A DNA stretch of 64,000 nucleotides, taken from positions 41,803-105,802 of the forward strand of contig CAJTKB010000001.1 in the NCBI GenBank assembly GCA_910576925.1, read 5' to 3'. Each line of letters begins with the position of its first letter. Within the stretch, counting starts at the first letter, position 1. The notes beneath the pieces are model-generated. The model saw only the letters and a program-made list of their open reading frames with translations, made no database searches and was not told where the DNA came from. The translations under genes were made by a program, and so were the position numbers. The stretch comes from an uncultured Bacilli bacterium (GTDB taxonomy: Bacteria; Bacillota_I; Bacilli_A; RF39; UBA660). Shown here piece by piece: positions 21,043 to 28,658 of this stretch.

Positions 21043-22130
21043 ATTTCATTTGCTCCTTTAAGTATCCATCGATAAATAAGTCTATATATCCGTCTAAAAC
21101 TTTTGAAACATTAGAAGTTTCGATATTCGTTCTATGATCTTTCACTAGTGAATATGGATGCATTACATAACTTCTGATTTGTGAGCCAAATTCTATATTT
21201 TTAGTTTCTCCTTTTATATGACTCATTTCTTTTTCTCTTTTCTCCTCTTCTAATATTTGAAGTTTTATTTTTAACACTCTTAAAGCTTCTTCTTTATTTT
21301 GAATTTGACTTCTTTCATTTTGACAAGTAACAACAGTCTTAGTTGGTAAATGAGTAATTCTTACAGCAGAATCTGTTGTATTTACTCCTTGCCCTCCACA
21401 ACCTGATGAGCGGTAAACATCTATTTTAAGATCTGTTTCTTGAATTTCTATACTTATATCATTGTCTATTTCTGGCGTTAATTCAACTGATGCAAAGGAG
21501 GTATGTCTTTTATTATTTGCATCAAATGGTGATAGTCTAACTAAGCGATGTACTCCTTTTTCACATTTTAAATAGCCATATGCATTTTCTCCTGATACTT
21601 CAATAGAACAACTTTTTATACCAGTTTCATCGCCTTCTTGATAATCTAATATTTTAATTTTATAACCTTTTTTTTCACACCATCTACAGTACATTCTATA
21701 AAGCATCATTGCCCAATCACAGGCTTCTGTTCCTCCTGCACCACTATGAATTTCTAATATGCAATTTTTATTATCATACTTTCCACTTAGTAAGAGAAGT
21801 TTTTCTAATTCTTCTATTTTTTCAGTTATTTTATCTATATCTTCTTCAATACTTTTTAATATTTCATTATCATCAAGTTCTAATAATTCAATATTAGTAT
21901 CTATATCATTTTTTGTTTTTTCTAGTGGAAGTACTATATTTTTTAACGAAGATATATCAGCAAAGATTTTTTTAGAAAGTTTCTCGTCACTCCAAAAGTT
22001 ATCAGCTTGAGTTTGTTCTTCTAATTTTCTTATTTTCTCTTTTTTATTTTCAACGTCAAAGAGTCCTCCATAAGTCATTTATTTTATCTTTTTGTTTATT
22101 TAGTTCTCTTTTTAATTCATTTATATCCAT
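21026..22130 (-). CDS. prfB: Peptide chain release factor 2 (programmed +1 frameshift)
   Basis: GGQ motif and SPF tripeptide (RF2-specific). ORF1 from the ATG at 22130 (MDINELKRELNKQKDKINDLWRTL*) ends at an in-frame TGA. The main ORF continues in the +1 frame. Confidence 0.85.
22055..22061 (-). promoter_or_regulatory. prfB: RF2 autoregulatory +1 frameshift site CTT TGA C
   Basis: Minus-strand sequence ...ACT CTT TGA CGT.... This is the classical frameshift motif. Confidence 0.7.
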
Positions 22131-22267
22131 TTTATCCCAACTTTCTAATCTTATTATACACATTGTTTTTTCATTTTAAACATTTTTATGTATATTTTTT
22201 TATTCTTTACATATTATATTAGTGAGGAAGGTTCACTATGTAGTGTGAAGATCCTCTGTATATAGAT

Positions 22268-22291
22268 TGGAGCATATATGCTCCTTTTTTT
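22268..22291 (+). terminator. Palindromic hairpin plus T-run (possible terminator at island left border)
   Basis: GGAGCATATATGCTCC followed by TTTTTTT. Confidence 0.35.
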
Positions 22292-22321
22292 GTTTCAATT
22301 ATATTGATAAATTTATATATT

Positions 22322-23362
22322 TTAATTTAATTTTTCAAGACAATGTATATATTCTACTGTTGTATTTTTTAAATATGTTCTTTTTTTATCTGCTTTGAAT
22401 CTTTTATGCTCTTTTTCATATAATTTGTATCTTCCGTATTTTGACATTATATTTTTTATTTCTTCTAATGGTATTATACCCTCGTCATTATAACTTAGTA
22501 GAATATATTTAAAATCTGCTTTTTCTATTATTTCTTCTAAGGCTTTAGTAGCTTCTTTTTTTATGCAATATTTGGATTTTTTATTTTCTTCTTTTCTTAT
22601 TCCTGTTTTACCTTTTATTTCTGGATTATCATATAGTGCTATTGTTTCTAACATATGATAATTTGTATCATACTTTCTAGTATTGTATGGTGGATCCATA
22701 TATAAAATATCACCTTTTATTTTTTTTATTAAGTTGTTACTATCTTCATTATATACTTCTAATTTTTTGCACTTTTTATTAATTATTACTTCTACAGGTT
22801 TTAATTCTAAATTATTACAAGCAGATTTTTTCATTTTTTTTAGAAAAGCTTCGTATACAGAAGCAGTATTAGCAACTTTATCAGCTGATTCTATTAAACT
22901 TGATATTAAGAAATTATATTCTGTTTCATTAATCATTTTTTCTTTTTTCCAAACTTCTATTTGTACTCTTATAGCATCTATTTTTTGGGCATTTTCTGCA
23001 CTAAAGTATTGTCTTTCAAATTCGTTTCCTGCTGTTCCTTCTAATGAGTAGTTCTTATATATAAATCCTTTTTTATTTCTAATTTTATTTAAGTATTCGA
23101 ATGGTTCTATATCATTTTCTTTTAATATTCTAAATTCTAATGTTTCATTGTTTTTTATAAAATGTTTTGCTGTTATGTAACTGTAATATTGAATATCATT
23201 AGAAATGATACTATAGCCTTTCTTTTTGAAGTATTTACCAACTGCACTTGTTCCTGCGAAAATATCACAAAATACAATATTATTTGACTCTGGTTTTATA
23301 AAGTCTTCTATTGTATCATCTATATATTGAAGTATTGAAGTTTTTGATCCTATATAGTTCAT
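22322..23362 (-). CDS. D12-class (Dam-like) N6-adenine DNA methyltransferase
   Basis: N-terminal YIGSK (Dam WAGGK-like), motif I DIFAGTSAVG, motif IV DPPY. 346 aa. Confidence 0.8.
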   Translation of the reverse strand: MNYIGSKTSILQYIDDTIEDFIKPESNNIVFCDIFAGTSAVGKYFKKKGYSIISNDIQYYSYITAKHFIKNNETLEFRILKENDIEPFEYLNKIRNKKGFIYKNYSLEGTAGNEFERQYFSAENAQKIDAIRVQIEVWKKEKMINETEYNFLISSLIESADKVANTASVYEAFLKKMKKSACNNLELKPVEVIINKKCKKLEVYNEDSNNLIKKIKGDILYMDPPYNTRKYDTNYHMLETIALYDNPEIKGKTGIRKEENKKSKYCIKKEATKALEEIIEKADFKYILLSYNDEGIIPLEEIKNIMSKYGRYKLYEKEHKRFKADKKRTYLKNTTVEYIHCLEKLN

Positions 23363-23452
23363 ATTAAGCCTCCTCTTTTATTATAACATAATATGTATTG
23401 GTATAATTTGTAATATTTATATATAAAGCGTTTTATGTTATAATTTCATAAG

Positions 23453-24265
23453 GTGATTGTAGTGAAGAAAAAGAAGATTAATGATATCGACATGAAAAAT
23501 TGGAAAAATTATGATGATATTATTACAGATAGTCTTTGGATTATAGATAAGAGAGATAATTCAGGTAATCATTTGGGTGACTATCATGGGAATTTCATAC
23601 CACAAATACCTAATCAATTAATGAAGAGATATACTAAAGAAGATGATTGGGTTTTAGATGCTTTTGCTGGTAGTGGCACTACTTTAATAGAATGTCGAAA
23701 ACTTAATAGAAATGGAATTGGGATAGATATAGATAAGGATATTTTAGAGGTTGCTAAGGAAAGATCAACTACAGAGATCGGTACTTCTGAACTAGAATTT
23801 ATTAATGCTGATAGTGCAGTTGTTGATTTGAATAATATTTTGGTTAAAAATAAAATCGATAAAGTTCAGTTAATAATATATCATCCACCTTATTGGGATA
23901 TAATAAAATTTAATGATTTAAAAGGAAATTTAGCTAATCTTAGTACTCTTGATGAGTTTTTGGATGGTTTTTCTAAAGTTATTGATAATACTGCTAAGTA
24001 TTTAGAGCGTGATAGATATCTTGCAATTGTGATTGGTGATATTTATAAAAAAGGCAAATGGATACCTCTTAATTCGTATATTACGCAACTAATGTTAGCT
24101 AAGAATTTTTTATTAAAGTCTGTAGTTGTTAAAAATGTTTCTGAAACTAAAGCTAAACAAAATAATAAATCTATATGGAGATATAGGTCTTTGCTTGGCG
24201 GCTTTTATGTATTTAGTCATGAATATATTTTAATTTTTCAAAAAACGAAAAAGACAAATATTTAA
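23453..24265 (+). CDS. Putative SAM-dependent DNA (N6-adenine/N4-cytosine) methyltransferase
   Basis: DAFAGSGTTLIECRKLNRNGIGIDID (PF01555-type motif I) followed by HPPY (motif IV-like). 270 aa. Likely GTG start at 23462. Confidence 0.55.
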   Translation: MIVVKKKKINDIDMKNWKNYDDIITDSLWIIDKRDNSGNHLGDYHGNFIPQIPNQLMKRYTKEDDWVLDAFAGSGTTLIECRKLNRNGIGIDIDKDILEVAKERSTTEIGTSELEFINADSAVVDLNNILVKNKIDKVQLIIYHPPYWDIIKFNDLKGNLANLSTLDEFLDGFSKVIDNTAKYLERDRYLAIVIGDIYKKGKWIPLNSYITQLMLAKNFLLKSVVVKNVSETKAKQNNKSIWRYRSLLGGFYVFSHEYILIFQKTKKTNI

Positions 24266-24290
24266 AAATTTATTGAACTACAATAAATTT

Positions 24291-24533
24291 TTATTTGTCT
24301 TCTTTTAAGTGTTTTCTAAACTCAAGTGGATCATACCAAAAGCAACCTATACAACCCTGAGAACTTCCATCGTGATTTTCATCTCCACTATAAAATGACA
24401 TAGGATAACCTAATTTTGTAGCATCAAACCTTTTGTTTGTTCTTCTGCATTCTTTACAAATTTGCCTTTTGGCATCATTTGCTGCTTTACTTAATGGTTG
24501 AAAGTCCTCTAATTTTTGAGTTCTAATATCCAT
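24291..24533 (-). CDS. Small Cys-rich (CxxC...CxxC) protein, hypothetical
   Basis: 80 aa. CKEC...CIGC suggests a zinc ribbon. Last gene of the three-gene operon. Confidence 0.4.
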   Translation of the reverse strand: MDIRTQKLEDFQPLSKAANDAKRQICKECRRTNKRFDATKLGYPMSFYSGDENHDGSSQGCIGCFWYDPLEFRKHLKEDK

Positions 24534-24586
24534 TGCAGTATCATTTTTCCAGCCATTTTTATGATCTACCTCTGGTTTTGAAGTAT

Positions 24587-24910
24587 TTAGTATAACACAT
24601 CTTTTATTTTTGTAGTAGTTTTTATATCTGTTCTTATTACTTGACTTCCTATTCTGTCTTCTTCTTTTTTTAATCCATTTAGTCTGATTCTATCAATACC
24701 TCTAGATCTTTTATCAAATTCTATATAATAGTATTTGGCAATTGTTGACTCTTTTCTACACCAATCTGCTCCATTTTTAAACATCAAACTAGCATATTCA
24801 TTAACAAATTCTGATTTTGATACCCATCTACTTTTTCCTTCATCATCAGGTTGTGCTAATTCAATAAATAAGTAGGGCTTGGTTCCTATTTTAAATTTTG
24901 GTTGATTCAC
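24587..24910 (-). CDS. Hypothetical protein, translationally coupled to the upstream nuclease-like gene
   Basis: The GTG start overlaps the TAG stop of the upstream gene (TAGTGA). RBS GGAGG sits 8 nt upstream. Confidence 0.45.
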   Translation of the reverse strand: MNQPKFKIGTKPYLFIELAQPDDEGKSRWVSKSEFVNEYASLMFKNGADWCRKESTIAKYYYIEFDKRSRGIDRIRLNGLKKEEDRIGSQVIRTDIKTTTKIKDVLY

Positions 24911-26025
24911 TATTTTTCCTCCTCAAAGATAATTTCTTTATTTTCTTCTTTAAATGATATATATCTAATGGTTTCTATTTTATACTGTTTTTCTATCCTA
25001 ATAGTATAGTTTTTTATGTCTTGATACATTTTTTTATTTTTTTTATTAGGAGTAGGGGCAATTATTGTAGGATGTATGACTACTAATTTGTTATAAGTAG
25101 GAACTATATAATCTTTAATCCAGTTAACATACTTTAACAACTGATTTTTTATAGATTCTTTAGGTTGTTCATCTTTTAATTCACAAACAATAATATCAGT
25201 TCTTTCGTCATTTTCTTGTATAAGGCAAATATCTATACTTTGCATTCCAACTCCACAAGAAACTTCATTTCCAATCCAAGTTATTTTATCATCCGTTACT
25301 TTTAACGCATCTATATTTGAAATATTTTGTAAAATATATGCTTGCATATGAGCCTCATAAGCTAGTTTTATGTTTTTTTTGTAAATTAACCTATTTTTTA
25401 TATTTAAGGATTCCTTTTTACCTTTATAGGTTTCTGAGTTATTAGATGTAACTATTTTGTTTTCAGCTATGTCATAATTATAGTTATTTCCTATTAGTTT
25501 TTTATAATTATTTTTATGTCTAATTTTATTCATTATTTTATCATATTCATAATCTGTTATCATAGTGCATCCTCTATTACCCTTTAGTTTTCTATATATA
25601 AGGCTCCAGCACATTTCGCTTGGATGTTTTATATTATCTAATGAGTCTAGGCACTCTCTTTCTGTAATTCCTTGTTCATATACTTCATCAGGAGTAAACA
25701 TAACTCTAAAAGTTAGATTTTTATTCAATTCATAGTTTAAATACTTGTCGTTGCATAGAAAAGGAGCTTCTATTGCCTTAAAACTTGCAAAAAACATTCC
25801 ATCATGATCTTGTGTTTTTTGTAAGTAAAATAATATATTATCATTTTTTTTAATTCTAGATATATCGGCTATCATTTCAGTTAATTGTCTTTCTACTATT
25901 CCTTCTATTTTGATATCGTTATTTATTAAGTAATTACAATCATATTTTTTTGCTCCTGTACCAGCAAATTTATATTGCAAGTGGATTGATAATGTTCTTC
26001 CGTCAACGATAAAAACATGAGCCAT
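24910..26025 (-). CDS. PD-(D/E)xK nuclease-like protein (candidate restriction/defense endonuclease)
   Basis: C-terminal IDICLIQENDERTDIIVCELKDEQ fits the D...E-x-K nuclease motif. Likely start is the ATG at 26025 (MAHVFIVDG, RBS AGGTGA); the track start at 26079 uses TTG. Confidence 0.5.
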   Translation of the reverse strand: MAHVFIVDGRTLSIHLQYKFAGTGAKKYDCNYLINNDIKIEGIVERQLTEMIADISRIKKNDNILFYLQKTQDHDGMFFASFKAIEAPFLCNDKYLNYELNKNLTFRVMFTPDEVYEQGITERECLDSLDNIKHPSEMCWSLIYRKLKGNRGCTMITDYEYDKIMNKIRHKNNYKKLIGNNYNYDIAENKIVTSNNSETYKGKKESLNIKNRLIYKKNIKLAYEAHMQAYILQNISNIDALKVTDDKITWIGNEVSCGVGMQSIDICLIQENDERTDIIVCELKDEQPKESIKNQLLKYVNWIKDYIVPTYNKLVVIHPTIIAPTPNKKNKKMYQDIKNYTIRIEKQYKIETIRYISFKEENKEIIFEEEK

Positions 26026-26585
26026 TTTATCACCTACTTCATTGAAGAATATTTTATCATAATTTTTATCTATATACAATTTTAATTTTTCTTCCCTTAT
26101 TATTAAGTGTAAACAGTATCAAAACTTTTGAATGTAATTTTCTGCTTCTTGTAAAATCCGTTAAATTTATTCTGCTTTTTATTAAGTTGTCACTATTTAT
26201 TTTTCTTCTTAACTATTCTATACTATATATCAAATACTTCATTATTAACTCTTTATTCTAATATTATTCTATCAAAAAAAGATAGACATTTAAAACTATC
26301 TTTATAAAAAGTCTCATAGGTATCAATGCCTTTAATTAATGATATTGCATATTTATGGCCTTTAAGCTACTTCCCACAGCATTGCTTACATTTCTTACCA
26401 TTTTCATACTCTTCTGATCTTAAGTATATATAGTATTTGTAAATATTTTTAAATAAAATTTACATTTATTCGCTAAACTGATTATATCGTATTTTATTTT
26501 TCTTAAATTCTTTTTATTCAATTAATACTTATCCATACCAGATTGATAGGAAACTCGAACTTTTCGAGTAGTAATAGAAAACGAC

Positions 26586-26614
26586 TTGTCAAAAAGTCGT
26601 TTTTATGATATTAT
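26586..26614 (+). promoter_or_regulatory. Strong sigma-A-type promoter (TTGTCA, 17-nt spacer, TGaTATTAT) driving an antisense transcript
   Basis: TTGTCA at 26586-91, extended -10 at 26606-14. Embedded in the palindrome ACGACTTGTCAAAAAGTCGT. Confidence 0.5.
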
Positions 26615-26704
26615 GCATATAGATGAAGAATTCTTCATACAATAAAAAGGGAATACTTAACCTTTCCTTGTTTGAGTGTTCACCAGAATGTGGTTAGCAC
26701 TTAA

Positions 26705-26830
26705 TCTACGAAAGTAAATTGAGTGCTTTTGTCTTATTATAGATTACTATATTACCAAAGTAAAAAGTAAGGCTATGAGTAAGAAGATAATTAGAATAAG
26801 TGATAAGATTAAAAAATCTTTCTTATGCAT
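26705..26830 (-). CDS. 41-aa hydrophobic peptide (candidate type I toxin, Fst/TxpA-like)
   Basis: MHKKDFLILSLILIIFLLIALLFNFGNIVIYNKTKALNLLS. RBS AAAGGAGG 8 nt upstream. The 5'UTR can pair the SD with an upstream GCCTACTTT segment. Confidence 0.45.
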
Positions 26831-26892
26831 ATCATCAGCCTCCTTTCATTTGAAAGTAGGCAAACACTCAACGATTAAATATTCCTAAAATA

Positions 26893-26921
26893 ATTATACA
26901 AAACAAATGTTTTTATTACAA
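26893..26921 (-). promoter_or_regulatory. Promoter for the small-peptide mRNA (TTGTAA, 17 nt, TATAAT)
   Basis: Minus-strand TTGTAA (26916-21) and TATAAT (26893-98) give a leader of about 56 nt. Confidence 0.4.
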
Positions 26922-27003
26922 TAAATTTATACTAAGTTATGACAATTTAGTAAAACACACTTGCATATTGACAATATCAATATGTATATATGGAGATATT
27001 TAA

Positions 27004-27489
27004 ATGAATAATACTATTAAAGGTACAAGTTGTTATGCAAATGCTAAATCAGGAAATCTCGTTTCAATAACAGGTGACGGTGGAAATGCTTGGGGATTTT
27101 ATGGACAATCATATAAAAAGTTAGCACCAAGTCTAAAATTATATGAATACTGGCGTGATAATCCTGATCATTTAAGTGATATGGAATTAATTGAATATTA
27201 TGTACAACAATACTATAATCATCGTTTAATAAATTTAAATGTTGAAGAACTTTTTAATATTTTAAGAAACAAATTTGGAGAAGAAATTATTCTTTTATGC
27301 CATGAATTACCAAGCGAATCACCAATGATGGATAAAAAACATTTTTGTCATAGAAGATTAGATGTAGATTATTTTGAACTTGAAACTGGAATAATCATTC
27401 CTGAAATAGGTATTGATGAAAGTGGTATTATAACTTATTATGAACAACCAAATTATAAAACTATTTTAAAAAAAGTTATGAAAAAATAA
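27004..27489 (+). CDS. DUF488-family (YeaO-like) protein
   Basis: LAPSLKL and ILLCHE...HFCHRRL fit the DUF488 LLCxE...CHR signature as I recall it. 161 aa. Confidence 0.5.
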   Translation: MNNTIKGTSCYANAKSGNLVSITGDGGNAWGFYGQSYKKLAPSLKLYEYWRDNPDHLSDMELIEYYVQQYYNHRLINLNVEELFNILRNKFGEEIILLCHELPSESPMMDKKHFCHRRLDVDYFELETGIIIPEIGIDESGIITYYEQPNYKTILKKVMKK

Positions 27490-27770
27490 TATTTTATATA
27501 GCAAAAGTTGTTATACCTCATCCTTTAGGGTACATATAGATAGCATAATCATACCTTTTCCCTTTTTAACATCTACACTTAATAAGGCTTCATTAATTAC
27601 TCATTTCTTGATTACAGGCTTCTGTTTCTATCATTATTTTATCAAGCTTGTTATATTCTAAGACCATTTAATTTGTGTTCTCACTTATACTCTTGATAAA
27701 TAATTTAACCTGAAAAATAAGATATAAATATTAAATTATTTACATCTAAAGTATACTTGTAATCTATCTT

Positions 27771-28658
27771 TCAAAATAATGCTATTTGTTCATTGTTTTT
27801 TATTTCTTTTTTATACGCACTAATAATATCTTTCATATTATATAATATTCCATATTTATCGCATTCATCAGTAAATATTTTGTATAAGTACTTATGATTA
27901 GGCACAGTACAATAATATTTATTCCCATAATATTCAATATACTTTTGTTTCAAGCCTTTAAAATTTCTGTCTAACACTTCAAAATAGTAATCTCTTTGAT
28001 TATCTCTTAAAGTCATTCCCATATAAGTATGAATAAATCTTGCACCATATTGGCTTGCTAGTCTCACTAATTCCTTTATATCTTCTTCTTTATCAGTAAT
28101 AAATGGCAAAATAGGATTCAACATAATACCTGCAAATATTCCGTTCTTACTTAATTCACTAATTGCTTTAAATCTATTTGAAGAAGCACATACATTAGGC
28201 TCTATTATTTTAGATAAATCATCATTTGATGTTGTTATAGTAAATTTAACAATGACATCATTTTTAGCATTTATTTTTTTTAATAAATCTATATCTCTCA
28301 AAATTAAATCACTTTTTGTGTCAATAGAAACTCCATATCCATATTTTGAAAATAGTTTTAATGCACTTCTAGTCTGTTCATATTTTATTTCTAATGGATT
28401 ATAAGTATCTGACATTGATCCAATACCTACAACACCTTTTTCTCGTTTTCTTGATAATTCTTGTTCTAAAATTTGAAGTGCATTTTCTTTTCCTTTAACA
28501 AGATCAAAATTTTCTATATGATAGCAATTACTTCTGCTATCACAATAAATACATTTATGAGAGCATCCTCTGTATAAATTGATATTATAATTAACACCAT
28601 ACCATTCAGATCCGTCTTTTACTTTTGTAAGCATTGTTTTTGCTTTTATGTATTCCAT
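27771..28658 (-). CDS. Radical SAM protein, SplB-like (spore photoproduct lyase / DNA repair photolyase COG1533 family)
   Basis: YRGCSHKCIYCDSRS CxxxCxxC cluster in the COG1533-type context. 295 aa. Confidence 0.7.
   Translation of the reverse strand: MEYIKAKTMLTKVKDGSEWYGVNYNINLYRGCSHKCIYCDSRSNCYHIENFDLVKGKENALQILEQELSRKREKGVVGIGSMSDTYNPLEIKYEQTRSALKLFSKYGYGVSIDTKSDLILRDIDLLKKINAKNDVIVKFTITTSNDDLSKIIEPNVCASSNRFKAISELSKNGIFAGIMLNPILPFITDKEEDIKELVRLASQYGARFIHTYMGMTLRDNQRDYYFEVLDRNFKGLKQKYIEYYGNKYYCTVPNHKYLYKIFTDECDKYGILYNMKDIISAYKKEIKNNEQIALF

Follow-up and report, generated by a model that had tools for sequence, protein, structure and literature searches.

An EVE-nuclease fusion genetically tied to a DNA methylase in a mobile NlaIII/HpyI-type restriction-modification cassette

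Gene content of the locus

The stretch of DNA analysed here (hereafter the window) comprises 64,000 nucleotides (nt; ~25% G+C) of contig CAJTKB010000001.1 from an uncultured Bacilli bacterium of the lineage UBA660, and between positions 22322 and 26079 it carries a horizontally mobile restriction-modification (R-M) cassette of the NlaIII/HpyI type. The cassette has four genes: two DNA methyltransferases (MTases), M1 and M2, an NlaIII/IceA1-type HNH endonuclease (IceA) and a larger nuclease that we call X. All five open reading frames (ORFs) that a first-pass annotation, made by a model from the sequence alone, had placed in this interval are present at the coordinates it gave, and its general view of the region as a restriction or defence module is sound, the large protein being a real nuclease with an N-terminal domain that had previously been left unassigned. 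In its R-M core the cassette is an ordinary one, of a kind described before, and it is X that stands out: its family is widespread, and the reader-nuclease architecture of its members is genetically tied to a methylase. The genes and intergenic features of the cassette are given below, with protein lengths in amino acids (aa).

22322..23362, minus strand: M1, D12-class N6-adenine MTase of 346 aa with the motifs FAGTSAVG and DPPY.
23363..23461, no strand: divergent intergenic region between M1 and M2, as delimited by the gene coordinates, with the presumed promoters of both methylase genes.
23462..24265 (alternative start 23453), plus strand: M2, N6_N4-family amino-MTase with its motifs in permuted order, FAGSGTT and then HPPY.
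24291..24910, minus strand: IceA pseudogene, an NlaIII/IceA1-type HNH endonuclease made up of a '107-aa' ORF (24587-24910) and an '80-aa' ORF (24291-24533).
24619..24623, minus strand: frameshift site in IceA, a run of five A residues aligned at the DNA level with six in five intact homologous genes (1-nt deletion).
24910..26025, minus strand: X, 371 aa, with its ATG at 26025, AGGTGA at 26030-26035, and a TAG stop (24910-24912) that overlaps the GTG start of IceA by 1 nt.

Architecture of X

In X, which is 371 aa long, a reader of the EVE type, predicted to act on a flipped-out base, is fused to a NucS-like PD-(D/E)xK nuclease. Its three distinctive regions are as follows.

25636..26025, minus strand: EVE/PUA-superfamily domain, residues ~1-130, in which F20 and Y67 are invariant.
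25561..25611, minus strand: hallmark motif CWSLIYRKLKGNRGCTM, residues 139-155, between the two domains and the most conserved stretch of X.
24913..25305, minus strand: NucS-like PD-(D/E)xK nuclease domain, residues ~241-371.

The protein had been described as 371-389 aa long, and the shorter form is the right one: the TTG at 26079, which would give 389 aa, is a spurious extension, because the homologues begin with MAHVFIV or MTHVFIV, the gene is called as 371 aa in two NCBI metagenome-assembled genomes (MAGs), and the AGGTGA also supports the ATG at 26025. The overlap of one base between its TAG stop and the GTG of the 107-aa ORF is as had been noted. There are 2573 homologues of X at E<=1e-3, and its AlphaFold2 model has a predicted local distance difference test (pLDDT) score of 89 and a predicted template modelling (pTM) score of 0.87. 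The N-terminal domain adopts the EVE fold, and the closest structural neighbours of X are binders of 5-methylcytosine (5mC) and 5-hydroxymethylcytosine (5hmC), namely THYN1 and VcaM4I. Residues F20 and Y67, in 'FAGTG' and 'FYLQ', were matched by eye, and not by a computed superposition, to the pocket aromatics W26/Y82 of 2eve and W22/W82 of VcaM4I. The Pfam EVE model PF01878 does not match the window X, and one of 120 homologues carries it among the matches listed.

One genome per species was scanned for relatives of X, and from the 101 relatives obtained 80 loci were kept, which together with the window make up 81 non-redundant X-anchored loci, in all of which ORFs were called and clustered. 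A pattern search recovers the hallmark motif in 71 of the 81, and it is still recognisable as WSWIFKKLKGNRG in members that are only 26-28% identical; in the model its local pLDDT is 54-71, below that of the rest, and it is a candidate DNA-recognition or coupling element. The C-terminal domain has the PD-(D/E)xK fold together with the catalytic E...D...ExK constellation: E254, D265 (codon 25231-25233) and E282-L283-K284 (25174-25182) are invariant in 29 aligned homologues, in agreement with the nuclease motif that had been pointed out in this ORF. An E-x-K triad, mostly ELK, follows a GNE...ID motif in 75 of 81 members by strict pattern, and ELK or EMK could be recognised by eye in four of the other six. 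Domain libraries see little of this. X has no Pfam match and only sub-threshold NCBIfam matches (the best, NucS, at 13.4 bits for a cutoff of 216), it gives one weak match to PADLOC, in its nuclease part (PDC-S11, 5e-5), and it finds nothing among PDB chains by sequence even at E<=10. The curated PADLOC models cover both MTases of the locus, X remaining below threshold.

Linkage of X to the cassette

Of the X-anchored loci, 69 have M1, and IceA and M2 are found in 57 each; contig ends account for most of the missing genes. The hosts span Clostridia, Bacilli, Melainabacteria, Mucispirillum, Bacteroidota, Gammaproteobacteria and one Nanosyncoccaceae MAG, so that the large protein is kept with its neighbours in other genomes, as the idea of a conserved unit had supposed. 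There are at least four gene orders, the commonest being a helix-turn-helix (HTH) controller followed by IceA and X, opposite to M2, M1 and a second HTH gene; in some layouts M1 separates X from the HNH gene (X-M1-HNH-M2). Small HTH controller-type genes accompany more than 30 of the 81 loci (family C_a in 18, C_b in 15 and c28 in 3). The four genes also occur together on an element resembling an integrative and conjugative element (ICE) and in the Nanosyncoccaceae MAG, a 212-aa protein standing in the place of M2 in the latter.

Among 1.84 billion proteins, those bearing the X-type EVE domain reduce to only 227 representatives at 50% identity, and the full-length ones share a single architecture of ~345-410 aa. 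Two remote members, at 26-28% identity, still lie in cassettes of the layout C-IceA-X-(p212-like)-M2, where C is a controller and p212 a small extra protein dealt with below; one of them (L175) has an M1 that is 54% identical to that of the window, and the other (L173) has none on its 5-kb contig. In every informative locus the X family is found only in the CATG cassette type. No X was detected by tblastn in 72,556 plasmids, nor in 2.9 million viral contigs.

As regards X against IceA and M2 (INDEPENDENCE), IceA is absent from 13 X loci, in which X is full length with intact motifs, and, apart from the window, two further loci carry a split IceA; X and the MTase(s) are intact in all of them. 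X and M1 occur alone in four loci (L007, L010, L026 and L029), and where flanks are adequate X is without a nearby M1 in two only (L009 and L014); L014 keeps an intact IceA, and a CATG methylase must therefore be present elsewhere in its genome. The presence of integrases, serine recombinases, DUF262 and GIY-YIG genes around X loci marks these surroundings as mobile or defence islands. In L175 (5575-7063) a fragment of an EcoRI-like endonuclease (142 aa, PF02963) and an EcoRI-type methylase adjoin the CATG cassette, forming a small R-M island.

The broken HNH endonuclease

The two small ORFs next to X had been taken for proteins without an obvious family that completed a three-gene operon, and both match the ICEA family PF05315 (218 positions), the 107-aa ORF over positions 2-96 (E=1e-23) and the 80-aa ORF over positions 127-200 (E=5e-29); intact relatives match positions 5-204 (E=9e-70). 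The missing middle, with the HNH core '...CVILNTSKPEVDHKNGW...' (EVDHKNG), is encoded in the third frame across the gap, and no uninterrupted frame of the window IceA holds both the HNH core and the C-terminal Cys cluster. When one A is re-inserted at the frameshift site, a 206-aa protein with no other lesion is obtained, 84% identical end to end to the intact 209-aa IceA of a sister species, in which the cassette occupies the identical chromosomal site, beside prfB, two YitT genes and ftsE. The 107-aa and 80-aa ORFs are thus a single gene, split by the loss of one base. The gene is called as split in the same manner in at least three assemblies (two NCBI MAGs and one Logan run assembly) among 14 M1-carrying contigs, and because it recurs across independent assemblies a sequencing or assembly error was ruled out and the lesion is a real and recent one: IceA is a pseudogene by single-base deletion in the window lineage. 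Conceivably, the five-A form is a phase-off allele rather than a pseudogene.

A novel three-gene defence operon of 389-, 107- and 80-aa proteins beside orphan Dam-like methylases, the reading given in the first-pass annotation, is almost certainly wrong: the ORFs exist and are closely packed, but the two small ones together make up a single PF05315 gene, to whose family the MTases belong as cognate partners, and M1 is no Dam equivalog. Far from being orphans, M1 and M2 are the cognate pair of a canonical NlaIII/IceA1-type restriction endonuclease (REase), here a pseudogene, and thus match a well-known R-M system.

IceA is also split into two ORFs in two unrelated loci, L066 and L079 (114+78 aa and 109+89 aa), so that inactivation of the HNH gene recurs independently while X and both methylases stay intact. 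In the X-M1-HNH-M2 layouts (L025, 9282-9935; L020, 9247-9960) the HNH enzyme is a divergent one of 217-237 aa with an N-terminal CxxC...CxxC zinc-finger region, and just its C-terminal half is IceA-like (PF05315, E=1e-12; PADLOC REase_II PDLC03537, E=2e-27).

The methyltransferases

M1 matches PF02086 (E=2.8e-45, 155.5 bits, cutoff 22) and the PADLOC model MTase_II PDLC03257 (E=9e-110), which agrees with its earlier placement in the D12 class. The Dam-like, GATC-specific character proposed with it does not hold, since M1 scores 22.8 bits against TIGR00571, for which the curated NCBIfam cutoff is 114.85, and is not a Dam orthologue; the system is probably of the CATG type instead. DPPY is present in 69 of 69 M1 family members, and plasmid homologues of M1 are annotated just as 'DNA adenine methylase'. 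We infer M1 to be the cognate CATG N6-methyladenine (m6A) methylase of the NlaIII/IceA-type enzyme.

The second ORF had likewise been recognised correctly as an MTase with an FxGxG motif ahead of HPPY. It matches PADLOC MTase_II PDLC03351 (E=1.7e-104) and, in two stretches that reveal the permuted order, PF01555 (E=1.1e-27, 97.9 bits, cutoff 26.7), and among its relatives in the PDB are a chain named 'Putative modification methylase' (2zie, E=8e-15) and one deposited as DpnA (E=8e-8). HPPY occurs in 52 of 52 M2 family members. M2 has two possible GTG starts, at 23453 (270 aa) and at 23462 (267 aa); gene callers use the latter, which is also favoured by an AGGTGA six bases before it. By analogy with DpnA, M2 may have an auxiliary role, e.g. 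the methylation of incoming single-stranded DNA. The remote cassettes (L173, 3052-4077; L175, 3750-4790) have a long M2 of 341-346 aa, with ~75-85 extra N-terminal residues and a match to the PADLOC MTase model from end to end, the window M2 being a short form; HPPY is invariant in both. M1 and M2 flank IceA-type enzymes in more than 100 loci.

CATG as the probable target

In the window CATG occurs 50 times for 138 expected (0.36), making it the most depleted 4-bp palindrome with adequate counts. Its observed/expected ratio is 0.45 for 28 complete cassettes taken together and 0.05-0.13 in three loci with X and M1 only, and falls to 0.03 in related loci. On the strength of this depletion, in the window and in the cassettes, and of the published specificity of the prototypes, CATG is the probable target of the cassette, the specificities of M1, IceA and X being in each case deduced. 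The IceA1 of Helicobacter pylori is homologous to the nlaIIIR product of Neisseria lactamica and is paired with the CATG methylase hpyIM (PMC3261200, PMC4202330), full-length iceA1 being present in just ~20% of iceA1 H. pylori strains (PMC3261200). The site is printed as 'CTAG' in PMC3261200, and as CATG in PMC4202330 and in a study of Fusobacterium (10.1101/2022.07.20.500824). Another CATG enzyme, UpaP162I of Ureaplasma, is without a known domain (PMC6191088), and its methylase is annotated as C5 type; a kinship of this enzyme with X or p212 was considered. The CATG depletion is compatible with continued CATG restriction in the absence of IceA, without proving it. Over the whole window GATC is depleted too (observed/expected 0.60), and CCGG occurs 0 times for 5.1 expected, which may point to further restriction pressures, past or current, on the lineage.

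The cassette seen from IceA

A reverse sample was made of 41 IceA-anchored metagenomic loci with full flanks, in which M1 is adjacent to IceA in 41, M2 is present in 37 and X in 19. Cassettes of IceA, M1 and M2 without X are thus common, 22 of the 41 loci being devoid of X, and from these counts the core cassette is IceA plus M1, usually with M2, X being an optional insert. Since cassettes without X carry M2, the latter is not a private partner of X. A separate R-M pair formed by X and M2 was considered and ruled out, M2 occurring with IceA but without X in 18 loci, and X occurring without M2 in several.

In other loci the slot of X is empty, or filled by p212, or by an unrelated pair of 243-aa and 161-aa transmembrane genes (L112). 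The latter (L112, 5626-6832) encodes a 243-aa protein and a 161-aa protein with two transmembrane helices, on the methylase strand and in the usual X slot; at a guess it is a Pycsar-like defence pair of a small cyclase and a membrane effector. Gaps of ~1.2-1.3 kb like that of L112 are seen in L111, L120, L121, L123, L126 and L146. The protein p212 is found in seven of the 81 X-anchored loci. It is ~205-213 aa long, and at least 14 loci have it between IceA, X and the methylases, e.g. L004 (3162-3800), L020 (9960-10580) and L173 (2395-3009). It shows a PD-(D/E)xK-like motif, 'IDIYIDG..FDVK', with no Pfam or PADLOC match, and possibly adds a third nuclease to the cassette.

Flanks of the cassette

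Upstream of X there is one further conserved feature.

26026..26085, minus strand: leader upstream of X, short and conserved, including the ribosome-binding site; on the left, the sequence in common with the sister species ends here.

Only ~54 nt upstream of X align with the locus of the sister species (L168), at 89% identity. In the window the 978 bp from 26026 to 27003 form an AT-rich stretch (24% G+C) with no ORF of at least 50 aa and no Rfam match, and in the sister species the left flank of the cassette is a DUF2207_C gene instead; the stretch may mark where the inserted cassette ends, or be what is left of a decayed gene. A scan of 21900-27800 with Rfam returned no RNA family, and promoter and terminator scans did no better than on shuffled sequence in this AT-rich DNA. 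The prfB gene (release factor 2) has its classical programmed +1 frameshift site at 22050-22135 on the minus strand, where the short ORF MDINELKRELNKQKDKINDLWRTL stops at CTT TGA C, preceded closely by a GGAGG, and the 350-aa ORF goes on in the +1 frame.

Possible roles of X

We tentatively favour, while granting it somewhat less than an even chance, a reading of these sequence features in which X would be a second endonuclease gated by CATG methylation, its EVE domain checking the methylation state of a flipped base. X would cut independently of IceA, and adenine methylation by M1 would shield the host DNA. The EVE domain would flip out and inspect a base of the target site, either accepting unmethylated adenine or binding m6A as a veto, the conserved WS-IYRKL-GNRG element would give site recognition or domain coupling, and the C-terminal domain would cut at or near the site. 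The strain would still be restriction-proficient through X and M1 (and M2) despite its dead IceA. Its strict fidelity to M1, its placement in the R operon, its survival with M1 after the loss of IceA, and its very strongly conserved, possibly DNA-reading element are features to be expected of a nuclease that has to match M1 in specificity. X is often found in a controller-regulated R operon, and apart from M1 it has beside it no methylase family but M2, which is missing from some X loci.

Several points weigh against a methylation-gated X. Every characterised EVE-nuclease fusion is modification-dependent and not modification-blocked (PMC6765204, PMC7897488), and there would be no precedent for an EVE domain selective for unmethylated DNA. 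The co-inheritance of X and M1 could stem from common descent of a mobile unit and not from functional dependence, and passengers do occur, since the slot between IceA and M2 also takes unrelated cargo (L112). The CATG depletion without IceA may be historical, or due to another CATG enzyme elsewhere in the genome. Finally, the window has no HTH ORF upstream of X, and tblastn with the HTH of the c28 controller found nothing significant there.

The genetic linkage of X to M1 is strong, while a functional dependence of X on an N6-adenine methylase is a prediction, and there are other ways in which the two could be connected. The main alternative is that X, rather than policing methylation on intact DNA, is a Metis-like sensor whose EVE pocket would bind N6-methyl-dAMP (m6dAMP) or short m6A fragments from an M1-methylated chromosome degraded by a phage, upon which the nuclease would fire and the infection abort, M1 being kept as the source of the signal. 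PUA-like domains that sense Dam-derived m6dAMP do activate effectors in Metis and PUA-Cal-HAD (bioRxiv 10.1101/2025.11.05.686725; PMC12871103), the Metis paper predicts a 'type III' in which a sensor homologue shares an operon with its own adenine methylase (10.1101/2025.11.05.686725), PUA-like domains are embedded in R-M operons with N6-adenine methylases (PMC12871103), and the pairs of X and M1 outlast the loss of IceA. However, such a sensor could be served by any m6A methylase, yet X, M2 aside, is found only with M1 across phyla and down to 26% identity. There is also no MisB/HAD-type partner that would clear basal m6dAMP, no conserved phosphatase neighbour being found among the gene clusters of the 81 X loci; the X-type EVE domain is known in a single architecture and never shuffled to other effectors; and X mostly lies in a controller-regulated R operon. 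We regard this role as unlikely. A free-standing type IV enzyme comparable to VcaM4I, which would cut foreign 5mC, 5hmC or hypermodified DNA and merely travel in the CATG cassette, is quite improbable, even though X is built like the known modification-dependent enzymes and resembles binders of 5mC or 5hmC most closely in structure, the slot between IceA and M2 takes other defence-like cargo, and the loci are mobile or defence islands. PUA-nuclease ORFs lie near DNA methylases in fewer than 6% of cases (PMC6765204), whereas X sits essentially always beside a specific methylase pair and a type II REase; the breach of this rule disfavours a free-standing enzyme and makes it unlikely that X simply depends on the host's own mark. 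Judged by the absence of a cognate methylase nearby (Lutz et al. 2019), X does not qualify as such an enzyme, with M1 within a few kb in 69 of 81 loci. Nor is X met in varied contexts, in plasmids or in the viral contigs, and it is kept with M1 through at least four rearrangements and after the loss of IceA and M2.

The 1-nt stop/start overlap that couples X to IceA in translation, in the window and in the sister species, and the adjacency of the two genes in most loci would suit an obligate helper of IceA, either a second subunit or an enzyme that processes IceA-cut ends against religation, in which case the window X would be a remnant and the MTases effectively orphan. This is very improbable, because X is intact in 13 loci without any IceA, more than half of the IceA-anchored loci are without X, the published NlaIII and HpyI systems work without it, and the gene order varies, including layouts with M1 between X and the HNH gene. 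Two further ideas were dropped. Cutting of m6A-CATG by X, with M2 adding a second protective mark, was ruled out, as it would make the loci with X and M1 but no M2 suicidal, and a Vsr- or MutH-like repair role was set aside given that the cassette lies on ICE, integrase-bearing and defence-island DNA; moreover, we know of no m6A-linked lesion. Whichever of the two forms it took, m6A veto or danger signal from methylated breakdown products, the proposal that X represents a new class of methylome-coupled nuclease, with an EVE reader wired to a cognate adenine methylase, is a possible but somewhat doubtful one.

Comparison with known systems

In NlaIII, HpyI (iceA1-hpyIM) and the cluster of Campylobacter jejuni ST-677 a PF05315 HNH endonuclease likewise stands beside a D12-class adenine methylase, and in the C. 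jejuni IceA1/NlaIII cluster a second methyltransferase is reported (PMC4202330), as in the window cassette. The iceA1 of H. pylori is often mutated (PMC3261200), and the window IceA is broken too. What distinguishes the window cassette from these systems is the extra 371-aa EVE-nuclease X, which the papers on them cited here do not mention (PMC3261200, PMC4202330), and its relatives differ from NlaIII and HpyI in having one or two HTH controllers and sometimes p212 as a fifth gene. The DpnII cassette of Streptococcus pneumoniae (DpnM, DpnA, DpnB) has the same core of one REase with a D12-class and an N6_N4-class methylase, but its target is GATC, against the inferred CATG here, and the window M2 is a permuted HPPY variant.

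The modification-dependent restriction endonucleases of the PUA superfamily (the EVE-HNH enzymes VcaM4I and TspA15I, ScoA3IV, ScoA3V and those of the MspJI type) resemble X in linking an N-terminal EVE or PUA reader to a C-terminal nuclease, and the pocket aromatics appear conserved in both; X differs from them in its NucS-like PD-(D/E)xK nuclease and in an EVE domain too divergent for PF01878. NucS/EndoMS (DUF91) itself is only distantly comparable, given the sub-threshold NCBIfam score, and has at its N-terminus a dimerisation domain where X has EVE; it belongs to a repair locus, X to a mobile R-M cassette. Metis (MisA/MisB) and PUA-Cal-HAD share with X the fusion of a PUA-like sensor to an effector, and their function depends on an N6-adenine methylase, which is genetically linked in the predicted type III systems. 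Their effectors are a NAD+ diphosphatase, a calcineurin-like phosphoesterase or a membrane protein, whereas that of X is, from its motifs, a putative DNA nuclease; the X cassette has no MisB or HAD partner, and the methylase in it belongs to a full type II R-M system.

Implications

Fusions of PUA or EVE domains to nucleases have been taken as a signature of type IV restriction, partly for their avoidance of methylases, and the X family does the opposite. CATG systems are known transformation barriers, e.g. in Fusobacterium nucleatum (10.1101/2022.07.20.500824), and an unannotated second nuclease in CATG cassettes matters for the genetic tractability of gut anaerobes; X could also be a new reagent enzyme. 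Were X a methylated-nucleotide sensor, the Metis principle would extend to DNase effectors and to Firmicutes without Dam, and the danger-signal version would place inside a type II R-M cassette a system of the Metis type that has a DNase as its effector and brings its own methylase. If X is instead gated by CATG methylation, reader domains can serve the host-protective logic of R-M systems, and the veto version would make X a restriction enzyme that is not passively blocked but reads 'self' in an active way. Such gating would also explain how these cassettes remain restriction-proficient after the frequent loss of the HNH enzyme, as in H. pylori iceA1.

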